From Microgenomates group bacterium (GTDB taxonomy: Bacteria > Patescibacteriota > Microgenomatia > UBA12405), in contig JBAQNJ010000001.1 of the NCBI GenBank assembly GCA_049303675.1, positions 278,994-342,993 on the forward strand: 64,000 nucleotides of DNA, read 5' to 3'. The notes beneath the pieces were generated by a model. That model saw nothing but the letters and a program-made list of their open reading frames with translations. It was not told the origin of the DNA and made no database searches. Of the stretch, positions 20,152-60,092 are shown piece by piece; positions within the stretch are counted from its first letter, which is position 1; every line of letters starts with the position of its first letter. A program made the translations under genes and the position numbers.

Positions 20152-20214
20152 GTCCGATTATAGTCCTTCTTACCTAGATTAGCATGATTATTATTGATAT
20201 AATCCCACAGTAAC

Positions 20215-20249
20215 CCGGTGATAGTCCCGCCGCTGCGGGACGGTTATGC
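20215..20249 (+). pseudogene. tRNA-Tyr-like 5' fragment with its D-loop replaced by a GC hairpin
   Basis: CCGGTGATAG-TCCCGCCGCTGCGGGAC-GGTTATGC matches positions 1-10 and GGTTATGC of the intact tRNA at 20532. It has its own TGATATAAT box (20195-20203) and CAGTAAC leader. The GIY-YIG ATG lies in the TTATGC. Confidence 0.6.
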
Positions 20250-20512
20250 AAATAATGTATTATGTCTATATTTTAAAAAGTTTGGTTGACGGAAAAATTT
20301 ATACAGGTTTTACTTCTGACCTAAAGCACCGATATCAACAACATTTAGACGGAATGGTTTTTTCGACCAAAAATCGTCGACCACTTAAACTAATTTATTA
20401 CGAAGCTTTTTTATCAAAAATAGATGCAGCAAAACAAGAAAAGTATCTAAAGTCAGGTGGTAAAGCAAAAATTGATTTAAAAACAAAAATAAAAAATAGC
20501 TTAGAACTTTGA
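20246..20512 (+). CDS. Small stand-alone GIY-YIG nuclease-domain protein
   Basis: YVYILKSLVDGKIYTGFTSDLKHRYQQH is the GIY-YIG signature; 88 aa. Confidence 0.8.
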   Translation: MQIMYYVYILKSLVDGKIYTGFTSDLKHRYQQHLDGMVFSTKNRRPLKLIYYEAFLSKIDAAKQEKYLKSGGKAKIDLKTKIKNSLEL

Positions 20513-20531
20513 TATAATTTGGCTCAGTAAC

Positions 20532-20603
20532 CCGGTGATAGCAAAGCGGTTATGCGTCGGTCTGTAAAACCGATCTAGGTAGGTTCAACTCCTACTCACC
20601 GGA
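20532..20603 (+). tRNA. tRNA-Tyr (anticodon GTA), class I, C1-G72
   Basis: Manual cloverleaf: acceptor CCGGTGA/TCACCGG, anticodon stem TCGGT/ACCGA, loop CTGTAAA, 5-nt variable loop, T arm GTAGG-TTCAACT-CCTAC, discriminator A. No encoded CCA. Promoter TGATATAAT at 20510-20518. Confidence 0.75.
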
Positions 20604-20613
20604 CATAATTTTA

Positions 20614-20661
20614 GCGACGGTCTGTAACCCCGCCGCTGCGGGGCAACTCCTACTCACCGGA
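20614..20661 (+). pseudogene. tRNA-Tyr-like 3' fragment with an internal GC hairpin
   Basis: GCGACGGTCTGTAA-CCCCGCCGCTGCGGGG-CAACTCCTACTCACCGGA matches the intact tRNA from its anticodon arm onward. The same CCCGCCGCTGCGGG hairpin replaces the variable/T-stem part. It overlaps the 3' end of the minus-strand Ham1-like ORF. Confidence 0.6.
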
Positions 20662-21297
20662 CTCATTTTTTAATCTCTCTAATATTTTTGGTGTTATCGG
20701 CCATAAAGTAGCCGCAGTATAATCCGCGTATTCTTCTGGTGTCATTTCTGATAAAGTATTTTTTTTCCCTTCAGGAATAAAAAACCAATCAAAATAATAA
20801 CCAAGTTTTGTAATTCGTAATTCATTTGCCGCTGTACCTCTTGTTCTGACACCTTCCGAAATTACTTCACCATTAGGTATAGCCAAGGCAATTCCATAAC
20901 CAAAATAAATAGTTCGATTTTCAGTACCATTCAATTTGTCTAACAGTTTTTGAGTATTAGTTACGTCCGACTCGTATCGATTGTCTACTCCCAGTATCAT
21001 TTTGTCGTTGCCTGTTAATTCTTTTTTGGATTCTGTCCCTGGCCAGCCACCAAGTGCTTCAAATTCAATTCCTCTGTCAAAAGAAATCGACATCAGACCA
21101 GATGCTCTGCAGTAAGCCCTAGCCTTCAATTCACTATCACCTACAAAGCTACCCGAATTCTCCTCAACTTCAATATCTATCCCCAGTTCTTTAGGGTTTA
21201 CAAATCTATACAGCTTATCAAGTCCCAACTTTCGACAAGAATATAAAAATGGTTCTACCTTTGATCTATTTGTCGTCGCAATTAGTAGGTCTTTCAT
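20650..21297 (-). CDS. Ham1/RdgB-like non-canonical purine NTP pyrophosphatase
   Basis: LLIATTNRSKVEPF N-terminus and FDRGIEFEALGGWPGTES resemble the ATgN.gK and D.GL.v.aL.G.PG motifs. Confidence 0.65.
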   Translation of the reverse strand: MKDLLIATTNRSKVEPFLYSCRKLGLDKLYRFVNPKELGIDIEVEENSGSFVGDSELKARAYCRASGLMSISFDRGIEFEALGGWPGTESKKELTGNDKMILGVDNRYESDVTNTQKLLDKLNGTENRTIYFGYGIALAIPNGEVISEGVRTRGTAANELRITKLGYYFDWFFIPEGKKNTLSEMTPEEYADYTAATLWPITPKILERLKNESGE

Positions 21298-24119: not shown

Positions 24120-25618
24120 TGTACTAAGAGTTTGATCGTGGCTCAGGGTAAACGCTGGCGATGTGCCTAAGACATGCAAGTCGAACGGGATTCATTATCT
24201 TCACAAAGTTTCTAATTTTAGTGATTTTGTGAAGATAGTGAGTTTAGTGGCGAACGGGTGAGTAATGAGTACGAACGTACTCTCAAGCGGAACATAGCCC
24301 ACCGAAAGGTGGAGTAATTTTCCATAGTCTCGCAAGAGTAAAGATGCAAATCACTTGAGAAGCGGCGTACTTGCCACCAGCTAGTTGGTAGGGTAACGGC
24401 CTACCAAGGCTATAACGGCTAACGGCTCTTAGCGGAGAGTCCGTCACAATGGGACTGAGACACGGCCCATACTTCTACGGAAGGCAGCAGTTAGGAATCT
24501 TGCGCAATGGACGAAAGTCTGACGCAGCGACATCGCGTGAAGGATGAAGGCCCTCGGGTCGTAAACTTCTTTTATTGTGCCATGAAGGCATTTTGAATCA
24601 ACAGCTACTAACTACGTGCCAGCAGTCGCGGTAATACGTAGGCTGTAAGCGTTACCCGGTTTTATTGGGCGTAAAGCGTCTGTAGGTGGTTTTGTAAGTC
24701 TTGTTTCAAAGACCCCAGCTTAACTGGGGGCAGGGGCAGGATACTGCAAGACTAGAGTGATATCGGGGTTACTGGAATTTTTAGTGTAGGGGTAAAATCC
24801 GTGGATACTAAAAAGAACACCAAGCGCGAAGGCGGGTAACCAGGTATTTACTGACACTCAGAGACGAAAGCTAGGGTAGCCAATCAGATTAGAGACCTGA
24901 GTAGTCCTAGCTGTAAACTATGTATGTTAATTCTCTGTAATTTATTATGGGGGATGTAAGCTAACGCGTTAAACATACCGCCTGGGGAGTATAGCCGCAA
25001 GGCCGAAACTCAAACGAATTGGCGGGGAGGCGCACAACCAGTGGAGCATGTGGTTCAATTCGATACGAAGCGATGAACCTTACCTGGGTTTGAAATGTAT
25101 CTGCAAACCCCCAGAAACGGGGGAATCCTTAGAGGGTGATACACAGCTGTTGCATGGCTGTCGTCAGCTCGTGACGTGAGTTGTTCTCTTAAGTGAGGTA
25201 ACGAGCGCAACCCCCATCCGGTGTTATTGTGTCACCGGAGACTGCCTAGCATTATTTTGTTAGGAGGAAGGAGGGGACGACGTCAAGTCAGCATGATGCT
25301 TATGTCCAGGGCTACACACATCCTACAATGAGGAAGACAATGGGTCGCGAAACCGCGAGGTGGAGCCAATCCCACAAACTTCCTCTCAGTTGGGATTGCA
25401 GGCTGAAACTCGCCTGCATGAACCCGGAATTGGTAGTAATCGCGCATCAGCAGCGCGCGGTGAATACGTTCTCGCCTCTTGCACACACTGCCCGTCAAAT
25501 CAGCAAAGTTGAGGGCACCTGAAGCTTGGCCTTTGGCCGAATCAAGGTGAATTCAGCGATGAGGGTTAAGTCGTAACAAGGTATCTGTACTGGAAGGTGC
25601 AGATGGATCACCTCCTTT
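24120..25618 (+). rRNA. rrs: 16S ribosomal RNA (about 1.5 kb, no large insertion)
   Basis: AGAGTTTGATCGTGGCTCAG at 24127; GTGCCAGCAGTCGCGGTAATAC; AAGTCGTAACAAGGTA; 3' end GGATCACCTCCTTT. Confidence 0.95.
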
Positions 25619-38892: not shown

Positions 38893-39132
38893 TTATACAA
38901 AATGTTTCTTGGCAAAAGCTATTCCCGACCCTGTTTTAAGATATTTCTCAAATTTATATGCGATATATTTGTCATTAAATGCAAAATACACCTTTACTTT
39001 CCAGGGTTTATAAAATTGTGTTGCGGGTACTTTTCCTTCATTGTGCATTTTAATCCGCTCTTTTAGGTCTTCAGTACATCCTACATACCTCCGTCCGTAC
39101 TTATTTGTAAGTATGTAAACATAAGAAAACAT
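38893..39132 (-). CDS. Small stand-alone GIY-YIG nuclease-domain protein
   Basis: YVYILTNKYGRRYVGCTEDLKERIKMHNEG signature; 79 aa. Lies immediately downstream of tmRNA. Confidence 0.8.
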   Translation of the reverse strand: MFSYVYILTNKYGRRYVGCTEDLKERIKMHNEGKVPATQFYKPWKVKVYFAFNDKYIAYKFEKYLKTGSGIAFAKKHFV

Positions 39133-39243: not shown

Positions 39244-39247
39244 CGCA

Positions 39248-39678
39248 GGAGGAGATGCTCGGTATTGAGCCGAGGTCCAAAGTGGACTATAAAAAACGTC
39301 TACAAGCTTAATTTACTTTATCCTACACTTTCAACAACTAAAGTAAACGAAAAGTGTTGAAATGTCGATTATTGAGGGCATTACCCCTCTCTTAAATCCA
39401 CGATCTAATCGAGAAGATCGGGACAGCATTCTAGTTTAATTTACACTAGCTAGTCTTCTCTAGAAAAGGGGACTAACTAATGGATGATTCTGTTTAGGCA
39501 AGAGCCCAAACAGGAGCCTTAGAAGCTAGAGCGCCTTTTACAGCGTTTGCAACTTTGGTTAAATCAACACCAAAAGTATTTTTGGCATGTTTGTTTTTGA
39601 CCCTGTTTAACGACTCAATGGATCAAAGTCGGCTTGCGGTTTTTTAAGGTACTCACCTTGTCGATGCAATACATCTCC
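39248..39678 (-). ncRNA. ssrA: tmRNA (SsrA), one-piece
   Basis: Minus strand. 5' GGAGATGTATTGCATCGACAAGG (compare E. coli GGGGCTGATTCTGGATTCGACGGG). 3' GGAC-CTCGG-CTCAATA-CCGAG-CATCTCC-TCC is a T-arm plus acceptor. Tag ORF GTT-GCAAACGCT... (resume codon 39550-39548, stop 39496-39494) encodes ANAVKGALASKAPVWALA. smpB lies 2.7 kb away. Confidence 0.75.
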
Positions 39679-46490: not shown

Positions 46491-46497
46491 TCTTAGA

Positions 46498-46565
46498 GTG
46501 TTTAGAAGACCCTTAGGGGTTGACAACCGAGTCCGCCAAATGGTCCACGGTGCCCACTAAAACAC
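46498..46565 (+). promoter_or_regulatory. Structured metK 5' leader, candidate SAM-I/IV-like riboswitch
   Basis: Closing helix GTGTTTAG...CTAAAACAC encloses ACCC-TTA-GGGT, GACAACC, CCG...CGG and GGTGCCC (compare the SAM-I/IV core GGCAACC...GGUGCC). Followed by CCTT...AAGG around the SD. Confidence 0.35.
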
Positions 46566-46589
46566 GCCTTATCAATTAAAAGGAAAAAT

Positions 46590-47690
46590 ATGAATTATCC
46601 TCAATTTTCGTCCGAATCTGTCTGTGAAGGTCACCCCGACAAAGTCTGTGACCAAATTAGTGATGCTATCTTAGACGCTGCCTATACCCTCGACCCTATG
46701 GCTCGGGTCGCTATCGAGACTTTGGCTACGGTCAACAAATTAGTTTTAGCCGGAGAAGTTACTATTAATGGTACTCTCGATTATGCCGCTATTGCCCGCC
46801 AAAAGATCGCCGAGCTCGATTTTCTCGATTCAGTTTTAGATTTTACCGACAAATGCGACATCGAAATTGCTGTCCACACACAGTCACCCGATATTGCTCA
46901 GGGCGTCAATGCTGGTGGAGCCGGTGATCAGGGGATGATGTTTGGTTATGCTTGTCGCGAGACACCCGAACTAATGCCCCTTCCCATTTCCATGGCTCAC
47001 AAATTATGCCGTCAAATGGACGAATTACAGCGCATTCATCGTTGGATGCGCCCCGATGGCAAGTCTCAGGTTACCGTTCGTTATGATGGTCAGACTCCGG
47101 TAGCCATCGAGCGAGTTGTCTTGGCCAAGCCCATGAATTACGACCTCGCCCCTGCTGATTATTCTCACTTTTTCTATCAAAATGTCATTGTTCCAGTCTT
47201 AGCTGAATACAAGTTTGAAATCAGTGAAGACAAAATGATTCTCAATGGTACCGGTAAATGGACCATTGGTGGCCCCTCCGCCGATACTGGCGTTACTGGC
47301 CGCAAAATTGTCGTTGATACTTACGGTGGTATGGGTCGTATTGGTGGTGGTTGCTTTTCCGGCAAGGATACTACCAAGGTCGATCGCAGTGCCGCCTACG
47401 CCGCTCGCTATATTGCCAAAAATATTGTGGCTGCAGGTCTCGCCGATCGCTGCGAGGTTCAATTAGCCTATGCTATTGGTCAAGTCCTGCCTGTTGGTCA
47501 ATCTATTGAGACTTTTGGCACTGCCAAGTCAGAATTAAAGGTAATCGAAGATTTTGCATGGAAATTACTCGAATTATCGGTCGCTGGTATCAACAGTGGT
47601 CTCAATCTCCGCGTGCCAATGTATGCCAAAACCGCCCGCTATGGCCACTTTGGCCATCCCGAGTATCCATGGGAGAAGATAAAAGGCTAA
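46590..47690 (+). CDS. metK: S-adenosylmethionine synthetase
   Basis: SESVCEGHPDKVCDQISDAILDA, GAGDQGMMFGYA and DTYGG motifs. Confidence 0.95.
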   Translation: MNYPQFSSESVCEGHPDKVCDQISDAILDAAYTLDPMARVAIETLATVNKLVLAGEVTINGTLDYAAIARQKIAELDFLDSVLDFTDKCDIEIAVHTQSPDIAQGVNAGGAGDQGMMFGYACRETPELMPLPISMAHKLCRQMDELQRIHRWMRPDGKSQVTVRYDGQTPVAIERVVLAKPMNYDLAPADYSHFFYQNVIVPVLAEYKFEISEDKMILNGTGKWTIGGPSADTGVTGRKIVVDTYGGMGRIGGGCFSGKDTTKVDRSAAYAARYIAKNIVAAGLADRCEVQLAYAIGQVLPVGQSIETFGTAKSELKVIEDFAWKLLELSVAGINSGLNLRVPMYAKTARYGHFGHPEYPWEKIKG

Positions 47691-60060: not shown

Positions 60061-60092
60061 GTTCTAGTTTTTCCAAAAATATCAATCCCGCA
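60036..60092 (+). promoter_or_regulatory. Antiterminator helix of the Trp attenuator
   Basis: TGCGGGA-GATATT (60036-60048) pairs with AATATC-AA-TCCCGCA (60078-60092): 7 + 6 bp with a 2-nt bulge. It competes for the terminator 5' arm. Confidence 0.6.

Follow-up and report, generated by a model that had tools for sequence, protein, structure and literature searches.

How does an intact transfer RNA (tRNA) gene come to lie, together with the gene for a GIY-YIG nuclease, between two pieces of what looks like a second copy of the same tRNA gene? The question is raised by a locus in a 64-kb stretch of the genome of a Microgenomates bacterium, a member of the Candidate Phyla Radiation (CPR). We refer to this stretch, at its full length, as the window, and positions in the following are those of its plus strand. 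At 20194–20661 (+), a promoter-like box, a 5' piece of tRNA-Tyr, a GIY-YIG open reading frame (ORF), a second box, an intact tRNA-Tyr, a spacer and a 3' piece of tRNA-Tyr follow one another. A preliminary description had listed these seven features, and sequence inspection, repeat searches, ARAGORN and Rfam recover every one of them where it had been placed. It had also proposed that a nuclease cassette was inserted into a tRNA gene while supplying a functional replacement, and this proposal is borne out by empty sites in related genomes, by the ancestral position of the fragments, by the recurrence of the architecture and by the tRNA alleles of one related locus (L207). Insertion into a resident tRNA gene with a replacement copy is well supported, as is the view that the accompanying palindromes are clade-specific and borne by the element. 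We further lean towards regarding the locus as the product of an invasion of the resident tRNA-Tyr gene by a selfish, homing-like mobile cassette; the activity of the nuclease, its target and the mode of copying are what we infer from sequence comparison.

The tRNA-Tyr locus and its orthologous sites

Related genomes were located through homologs of the Ham1-like gene that flanks the locus. They share the gene order SMC, Ham1, tRNA-Tyr, exonuclease III, YgjP, RpiB and PGK. In L086–L088 (Ham1 82% identical) and L091/L092 (66%), one intact tRNA-Tyr borders directly on the stop codon of Ham1, and this tRNA-Tyr site contains no GIY-YIG gene, no fragment and no GC hairpin. An alignment with relatives lacking the GIY-YIG ORF, as suggested in the preliminary description, thus yields the empty site. 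In the window, it is the 3' pseudo-fragment that borders on Ham1; therefore, the fragments occupy the ancestral place of the tRNA, with the nuclease gene, a promoter, a tRNA and 10 nucleotides (nt) between them. The site is also occupied on the contig P0002, judging by the matching neighborhood and spacing that its gene list gives around a GIY-YIG gene (86% identical). A second site behaves similarly: a tRNA-Ala/tRNA-Trp/kinase locus is occupied in L001, L006, L013 and L177, while L127 and L154, which have the gene order of L006 and L013, possess tRNA-Ala, tRNA-Trp and a decaying 3' relic, and no GIY-YIG gene. The presence/absence polymorphism by which free-standing homing genes are recognized is therefore seen twice, as occupied and empty sites at tRNA-Tyr and as occupied and relic-only sites at tRNA-Trp.

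The tRNA origin of the outer pieces follows from their being exact repeats of the neighboring tRNA, not from a tRNA-model score. The 5' fragment (20215–20249, 35 nt, +), assigned by exact matches to the intact tRNA, consists of tRNA positions 1–10, the GC-rich hairpin GTCCCGCCGCTGCGGGAC (20224–20241), which replaces the 5' part of the D arm, and positions 16–24. The 3' fragment (20614–20661, 48 nt, +), assigned through the repeats D1 and D3, mapping and the empty-site comparison, consists of positions 24–37 (13/14 identical), a second hairpin copy, CCCCGCCGCTGCGGGG (20628–20643, found by repeat and motif searches), and positions 55–73 (19/19 identical), the GC palindrome standing where positions 38–54 would be. 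Neither fragment has a tRNA match in Rfam at E ≤ 10, and ARAGORN calls no tRNA in the joined outer fragments, in which positions 11–15 and 38–54 are missing. Scoring against tRNA models, which the preliminary description had named as a way to expose chance matches, thus lends the fragments no support, but chance repeats are ruled out by shuffles and by the exact matches of 17–19 nt. The 14-nt hairpin core, CCCGCCGCTGCGGG, occurs in exactly two copies in the 64 kb; with up to two mismatches there are 6 matches, against 0.09 expected, a number equaled in 0 of 100 shuffles. The sole other core-like site, at 60087, is an ordinary terminator with a T-run and is unconnected with tRNA fragments; both copies at the locus lack T-runs, and we rejected the idea that they are ordinary terminators themselves.

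Between and before these pieces, the promoter region is duplicated as well. An extended −10-like box, TTGATATAAT, with the leader CAGTAAC, is found in an outer version (20194–20214, +) and in an inner one directly before the functional tRNA (20509–20531, +), which together form the direct repeats D4 and D15; the box itself lies at 20194–20203 and 20509–20518, and CAGTAACCCGGTGATAG at 20208–20224 and 20525–20541, with 17/17 identical positions. The outer box is absent from the listing of a simple sigma-70 scan because it has no −35 match; a comparable −10 box precedes tRNA-Tyr by 11–13 nt in the empty-site relatives. We infer that the outer box is the promoter of the resident tRNA-Tyr, which would now drive the 5' fragment and the GIY-YIG gene. 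This gene (20255–20512, +) encodes 85 amino acids (aa), has an alternative in-frame ATG at 20246 and ends with a TGA stop codon inside the inner copy of TTGATATAAT. The intact tRNA-Tyr (GTA anticodon; 20532–20603/4, 72 nt, +) is called by ARAGORN and matched by the Rfam model RF00005 with 59.9 bits, and its role as the functional replacement copy inside the split gene is supported. It is separated from the 3' fragment by the 10-nt spacer CATAATTTTA (20604–20613, +), which resembles the native 3' flank CATTATTTTT of tRNA-Tyr in one empty-site relative.

Recurrence at other tRNA genes and clade-specific palindromes

A genome scan with one genome per species yielded at least 567 stretches encoding a relative of the nuclease, of which 80 loci were fetched; the recurrence counts given here were taken over 85 non-redundant homologous loci, mostly from CPR bacteria. 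When linkage is defined as a same-strand tRNA at most 60 nt downstream or at most 260 nt upstream of the nuclease gene, a tRNA adjoins the GIY-YIG gene in at least 38 of the 85 loci, as compared with about 2 expected from the tRNA density more than 600 nt away from the gene (0.12 per kb, both strands). The tRNAs involved vary (Tyr, Trp, Cys, His, Glu, Lys, Pro, Ser and others), and in the tRNA-linked clades the linkage is accompanied by hairpin-patched tRNA fragments. In L001, for instance, whose protein is 72% identical to that of the window, an upstream pseudo-tRNA-Trp with two GC hairpins is followed by the nuclease gene, by an intact tRNA-Trp 3 nt past its stop codon and by at least three tandem 52-nt relics, each made up of an anticodon-loop side, a hairpin and a T-loop-to-3'-end side. 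The preliminary description had suggested looking within the genome for such hairpins and tRNA fragments beside GIY-YIG genes; in other genomes, the architecture is found again at other tRNA genes adjoining homologous GIY-YIG genes. Many contigs stop right after the nuclease gene or the tRNA, as is expected at repeats.

Clustering of the proteins gave four main groups (10, 11, 12 and 15), which differ in their tRNA linkage and in their palindromes. Cluster 10, with 12 loci including that of the window, has tRNA-Trp, Cys or Tyr directly downstream and the palindrome CCGC-N4-GCGG in 12/12 loci; the same hairpin type is borne by a relic beside tRNA-Phe in L158, and the tRNAs for Trp, Cys, Tyr and Phe share GGTCT-NN-AAAACC in the anticodon stem-loop. 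Cluster 12 (3 loci) is found with tRNA-His and has CGAWTCG in 3/3. In cluster 11, which comprises 21 loci with 90-aa proteins, GCTNAGC is present in 21/21, and 18/21 have a tRNA upstream, which is that for Glu, Lys, Arg, His, Met, Gly or Gln. Cluster 15, with about 30 loci largely from Bacteroidota and others, has neither tRNA nor such palindromes. Across the related loci (349 kb in all), 51 of 62 and 29 of 36 palindromes are located no more than 300 nt from a nuclease gene.

Fifteen loci of cluster 11 were examined for the fit of palindrome and tRNA. In 12 of them, the first palindrome forms a perfect inverted repeat of 19–21 nt that takes in the last 4–6 nt of the tRNA, and its far arm matches each tRNA end (TCACC/GGTGA, ACCCCA/TGGGGT, AACCA/TGGTT, AGCCA/TGGCT); since the far arm tracks the tRNA end, the hairpins are part of the element and are adapted anew to each tRNA. 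In clusters 10 and 12, a stretch between two loop-coding regions has given way to the hairpin. This stretch begins after position 10/11 and reaches as far as the D loop or the D-stem end, or it begins at the 3' D stem and ends where the anticodon loop starts, or, most commonly, it runs from position 38 to 54/55. The anticodon loop (GGTCTNNAA) and, on the T-loop side, CGAATCC or CAACTCC are retained beside the hairpin; different tRNAs are most similar in these parts. L009 and L016 have the same hairpin and the same next 13 nt (CGAGTCCTGGAAG) despite differing resident tRNAs, and this segment therefore travels with the nuclease gene. That the hairpins are a clade-specific part of the element is accordingly well supported. 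The preliminary description had seen in the outer fragments a second tRNA-Tyr copy with two regions replaced by the same hairpin; the segments do map to the tRNA as it had said, but the hairpins are more than local substitutions.

In L009, L010, L011, L141, L207 and L210, the inner working tRNA is of another allele than the outer relics. In L207, the upstream relic starts with GGGAGTT and the downstream relic ends with AACTCCC, which pair together as one acceptor stem, while the stem of the inner functional tRNA, GGGGGCT/AGCCCCC, is unlike that of the outer relics. The simplest account would be an insertion that brought in the nuclease gene with a foreign tRNA and thereby split a resident tRNA gene. 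Other loci hold the remains without the gene. A metagenome scan with the pattern GTCTNNAANCCCGCNNNNGCGGG gave 126 matches, mostly chance ones in high-GC DNA; those in low-GC DNA adjacent to tRNAs are informative and include further Trp-type elements as well as relics without a nuclease gene. In L145, a hairpin-patched pseudo-tRNA-Tyr stands 29 nt upstream of tRNA-Tyr and the ORF is gone; L158 has tRNA-Phe followed by two 81-nt relic units, and L124 has Tyr-type relics and no nuclease gene. Tandem arrays of relics are found in L001, L158 and L177, and in L012 the 3' relic is inverted and lies upstream. The nuclease-less relics (L145, L158, L127/L154 and L124) and the tandem arrays fit a cycle of invasion, decay and loss.

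Several of these loci have further peculiarities. The nuclease ORF often ends within the tRNA (L021, 2246–2333; L009, L013, L015, L016): in L021, its final 36 nt are tRNA-Ser sequence and its TGA stop codon is the anticodon of that tRNA, and the TAG stop codon of several Trp loci overlaps positions 1–2 of the tRNA. Where the ORF ends in the tRNA, processing by RNase P would therefore strip the stop codon from the messenger RNA (mRNA). In L020 (2001–2676), two GIY-YIG genes of different clades form a tandem at a single tRNA-Gly; a 13-nt direct repeat of the 3' end of the tRNA flanks the first, and GCTNAGC palindromes precede the second, an arrangement that suggests successive invasions of one tRNA. 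Lastly, a full-length hairpin-patched pseudo-tRNA-His in L039 (2334–2426), directly after the real tRNA-His, is called by ARAGORN as a 93-nt 'tRNA-Arg(tcg)', showing that such relics can be mis-annotated as odd tRNAs.

The GIY-YIG protein and possible modes of spread

The preliminary description had let the nuclease gene start at the ATG of GGTTATGC (20246). An ORF of 88 aa does open there, but the start codon is more likely at 20255, 9 nt downstream, because an identical database protein (100%) and most homologs have 85 aa and begin with MYYVYIL. Residues 4–74 of the 88-aa ORF match the Pfam GIY-YIG family (PF01541, E = 8.1e-15). Across 30 aligned homologs, Y5, Y16, G18, R26, H30 and E62 are invariant, and no Asn is among the invariant or near-invariant columns. 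In a profile search against the PDB, the protein matches the UPF0213 structures 1zg2 (5.7e-14) and 1ywl (1.7e-9) and, more weakly, a SLX1 homolog. Its AlphaFold model (predicted local distance difference test, pLDDT, 93) has three strands and three helices, with just one short C-terminal helix beyond the domain, and the best Foldseek matches are 1zg2 and the nuclease domains of Slx1 (7cq3; TM score 0.71, root-mean-square deviation 1.6 Å), with the catalytic domain of I-TevI ranking lower. The motifs, the conserved Arg, His and metal-binding Glu and the α/β fold with a three-stranded sheet are those of the GIY-YIG superfamily, and the single domain in a protein within the range of about 80–110 aa, the lack of a conserved C-terminal Asn and the homology to 1zg2 and 1ywl are those of its minimal Slx1-like/UPF0213 subfamily; the tethered DNA-binding domain of the I-TevI/Seg homing enzymes is not found in the 85-aa protein. 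The protein is, in short, a minimal GIY-YIG domain of the Slx1-like type that lacks a separate DNA-binding domain. Its invariant catalytic residues and a confident model close to UPF0213 and the Slx1 nuclease domain suggest that the nuclease is probably active. With just 2 relatives among 2.9 million viral contigs, we rejected a phage origin.

In the homing-like scenario that we favor, the cargo of the cassette would be the 85-aa Slx1-like GIY-YIG gene, a complete functional tRNA-Tyr gene and the clade-specific GC palindrome, and its arrival would have left the original tRNA-Tyr as two outer fragments with loop-to-loop internal segments swapped for the palindrome. Neither fragment would fold or work as a tRNA, because the D-arm region and positions 38–54 are replaced. 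The nuclease gene would be read from the resident tRNA promoter via a short leader beginning with a stable hairpin, and the carried tRNA would be expressed from its own duplicated promoter. The nuclease would break an unoccupied tRNA gene whose type is identical or similar, and repair of the break would copy the cassette from the occupied allele, with the tRNA-derived arms, that is, the anticodon-loop side GGTCTNNAA and the T-loop side CGAATCC/CAACTCC, serving as portable homology. The carried tRNA would preserve the viability of the host, and loss of the cassette would become costly. The palindromes, for their part, would mark the ends of the element, interrupt the direct-repeat homology by which the cassette would otherwise be deleted, and rid the relics of the target; the nuclease may also bind or cleave at them.

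Several points weigh against this scenario. The case for cleavage and mobility is wholly comparative, and the 85-aa protein is without a DNA-binding domain, unlike characterized GIY-YIG homing endonucleases. If the tRNA gene is the target, the carried intact tRNA would itself be cleavable, barring protection. The clusters of related proteins in the database are small and lineage-specific, so that movement would be at most occasional, and the link between palindrome and nuclease clade could mirror the common descent of the whole unit, not recognition. Finally, inner and outer tRNA in the window differ at 1 position, and a local duplication or gene conversion is indistinguishable there from import from a close relative.

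The chief rival, which we hold to be unlikely, is a transposon-like mechanism defined by the hairpins: the nuclease, probably as a dimer, would read and cut palindromes or cruciforms instead of the tRNA gene, the mobile or excisable unit would be the segment between the palindromes with the only working tRNA, and palindrome relics would be landing sites. In its favor, the three motifs are near-perfect palindromes including their centers (AGCT, GCTNAGC, CGAWTCG), as is typical of the sites of dimeric enzymes, the motif differs by nuclease clade, and the fold is nearest to the structure-selective Slx1. The first palindrome of cluster 11, reaching 4–6 nt into the tRNA 3' end with a matching inverted copy, suggests a templated process at the DNA level, and L008 and L210 have short tandem duplications of the hairpin and 4–10 nt. 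GIY-YIG restriction enzymes with short palindromic sites also exist, Hpy188I being an example (PMC3045582). However, full palindromes stand at both ends after insertion and would still be cleavable, and no free ends, circles or fixed-length target duplications were seen at these loci. The palindromes moreover fold as RNA hairpins in the transcript, which makes a role in RNA equally possible, and their cutting by the nuclease is putative.

Such a role in RNA is the core of a further alternative, to which we assign a distinctly low probability: an operon, neutral or serving the host and inherited vertically, in which the fragments and hairpins are a processed leader and trailer that regulate or stabilize the nuclease mRNA and separate the co-transcribed tRNA. 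The geometry would suit it, with the hairpin, in clusters 10 and 12, always preceding the start codon by 11–42 nt and the nuclease stop codon abutting or overlapping the tRNA 5' end in many loci, which implies co-transcription. The hairpins also fold stably in the predicted leader and trailer, and their stems vary between loci with pairing kept. The numbers of G·U and A·C mismatches, 10 and 5 in a noisy and partly redundant set, speak neither for nor against selection at the RNA level. Yet such an operon leaves the empty orthologous sites unexplained, as well as the foreign alleles in outer relics, the gene-less relics, the inverted relic of L012 and the palindromic loops with reverse-complement variants (AGCG, CGCT). 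The preliminary description had offered a tRNA-mimic leader and trailer as its own alternative; it fails to account for the presence/absence pattern and the allele differences, but an added role at the RNA level may coexist with insertion, since hairpins that stabilize or process the mRNA leader may be compatible with either the homing or the hairpin-defined model. The weakest explanation, by which a decayed local tandem duplication of tRNA-Tyr, independent GC palindromes or terminator remnants and a passenger nuclease gene coincide, can point to the single position that separates inner and outer tRNA, to the duplicated promoter and to an ordinary terminator of the window sharing the stem CCCGC-N4-GCGGG, but is very improbable and already largely refuted by recurrence and the clade-motif results: the combined design is found again in dozens of genomes and beside different tRNAs, the palindromes seldom occur away from the nuclease gene and track its clade, and two exact core copies in 64 kb speak against a dispersed repeat in the genome.

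Related systems, other features of the window and wider meaning

Seg and I-TevI-type enzymes have about 200 aa or more and a separate DNA-binding domain. The window protein differs in being an 85-aa catalytic domain alone, nearer to Slx1/UPF0213 than to I-TevI. The closest parallel in setting is segB of phage T4, a GIY-YIG homing endonuclease gene in a tRNA gene cluster (PMC2330249): there too, the gene lies among or next to tRNA genes, its presence is polymorphic, and break-induced copying together with the flanks is expected. By contrast, elements of the T4 segB type are not known to split their target, carry a full replacement tRNA or have palindrome-patched relics, as the window cassette does. 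In the atp6 insertion of Allomyces, a mobile endonuclease ORF reportedly brings a replacement gene end, the old end being left as a pseudogene. Here as there, an essential gene is hit, a functional substitute is supplied and the displaced host part stays behind as a remnant; the Allomyces case, however, concerns a protein gene of which only the 3' part is replaced in frame, whereas here a tRNA gene is replaced by a whole copy and remnants with conserved GC palindromes lie on both sides.

Integrase-driven islands insert into tRNA and transfer-messenger RNA (tmRNA) genes and restore their 3' end. They resemble the cassette in using a tRNA gene as the site, in the partial duplication that leaves a working gene and a marking copy, and in tandem relic arrays. 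The cassette, however, has no tyrosine or serine recombinase, its cargo being the nuclease gene alone, and its breakpoints vary, lying in or near the D, anticodon and T loops, with no fixed att core. An integrase-type island was rejected on these grounds, as the cassette holds only the GIY-YIG ORF and the tRNA and the breakpoints vary between loci. IS200/IS605 and REP/RAYT elements use HUH (Y1) transposases that act on single-stranded DNA. Short conserved hairpins around a small nuclease gene, seemingly co-evolving with it, are common to them and the cassette; the palindromes here are embedded in tRNA-derived sequence, though, and the sole protein of the unit is GIY-YIG, with no HUH (Y1) transposase gene, for which reason this assignment was rejected too. 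A dispersed palindromic repeat family is at odds with the two exact core copies in 64 kb and with the clustering of the motifs near the nuclease in related loci. A group I intron was discarded, as no intron family gives a match at the locus with E ≤ 10 or, at gathering score, anywhere in the window and the functional tRNA is contiguous, and so was an archaeal-type split or permuted tRNA, as the joined halves are not a tRNA according to ARAGORN and neither half matches the Rfam tRNA model.

Among GIY-YIG proteins themselves, the UPF0213/Slx1-like group (1zg2, 1ywl) is the nearest in profile and fold matches, in single-domain size and in the non-conserved C-terminal Asn. A 2006 survey of the superfamily characterized the Slx1-like proteins of prokaryotes as minimal and as passed on mostly by vertical descent, with an unknown function that might lie in repair; a fusion to a TrmH-like tRNA methyltransferase is noted there, but no linkage to tRNA genes (PMC1564403). 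The tRNA-linked, palindrome-bearing clades described here differ from this picture in behaving like mobile elements. In CPR ribosomal RNA (rRNA) genes, GIY-YIG ORFs have been reported in insertions belonging neither to the group I nor to the group II introns (PMC11270868), which, compared by description only, resemble our case in the bacterial group and in the location of GIY-YIG ORFs in structural RNA genes; the word tRNA occurs 0 times in that paper. GIY-YIG goes unmentioned in a 2026 survey of the introns that interrupt tRNA genes of Patescibacteria (PMC13011429). A full-text literature search found no description of tRNA-linked minimal GIY-YIG cassettes, although absence there is no proof of novelty.

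Turning to the remainder of the window, the flanking Ham1-like nucleoside triphosphate pyrophosphatase gene (20650–21297, −) is a host gene outside the element. Its stop codon (20650–20652) falls within the 3' pseudo-fragment, into which the ORF extends by 12 nt (20650–20661), and its product has 215 aa as compared with 211–213 aa in orthologs, whose stop codons abut the tRNA; the insertion may thus have changed the C-terminus of this neighbor. A second, more distant GIY-YIG ORF (38893–39132, −; 79 aa, Pfam E = 5.5e-14) lies 115 nt downstream of a same-strand tmRNA gene (39247–39678, −; Rfam 82.5 bits), and the interval between the two contains a terminator and, 18 nt ahead of the start codon, the hairpin GGAGGAC-AAA-GTCCTCC. 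No tmRNA 3'-end relic is obvious by eye after this ORF. As tmRNA has a tRNA-like end, the arrangement may be another case of the same targeting theme.

The tRNA-Tyr genes of this Microgenomates/Shapirobacteria group have 72–75 nt, a short variable loop and C1-G72 as their first pair (window 20532–20603; L088 1713–1785; L091 3641–3713; L145), while L010 and L011, from other CPR bacteria, have the usual bacterial long-arm tRNA-Tyr of 86–87 nt. A short variable loop and C1-G72 are features of archaeal and eukaryotic tRNA-Tyr. The 16S rRNA gene (24120–25618, 1,499 nt) matches the bacterial small-subunit model over its full length and has no large insertion, and a match to the SAM-I/IV riboswitch at 46493–46599 scores exactly at the gathering threshold (41.1 bits). 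GC skew is negative in all 2-kb windows but one (about −0.04 to −0.40), and its cumulative curve descends almost steadily; complete genomes of UBA1400, an order of the Microgenomates, have been described as having this one-sided strand composition (PMC7143001).

What, then, would such a cassette mean for its hosts? tRNA genes are among the most conserved and essential sequences, and an invader that brings a spare copy is portable across species and hard to lose. More tentatively, and with less confidence than we place in the homing-like cassette itself, these loci may represent a previously unrecognized class of mobile elements, in which a minimal Slx1-like GIY-YIG nuclease, together with the palindrome of its clade as a DNA structure or dimer site, would cut tRNA genes at loop-coding positions, rebuild them and install itself along with a replacement tRNA. 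If so, the host would depend on the tRNA copy of the element, and the choice of target would come from DNA structure and tRNA-derived arms, not from a DNA-binding domain of the protein. If confirmed, the finding would give a biological role to part of the large, uncharacterized UPF0213/Slx1-like family, and would provide a very small nuclease (85 aa) whose specificity is perhaps set by a short palindrome or by DNA structure. It would account for odd tRNA fragments, for mis-called long 'tRNAs' such as that of L039 and probably for assembly breaks beside tRNA genes in CPR genomes, and it would reveal a route for the horizontal exchange of tRNA alleles in bacteria with minimal genomes.

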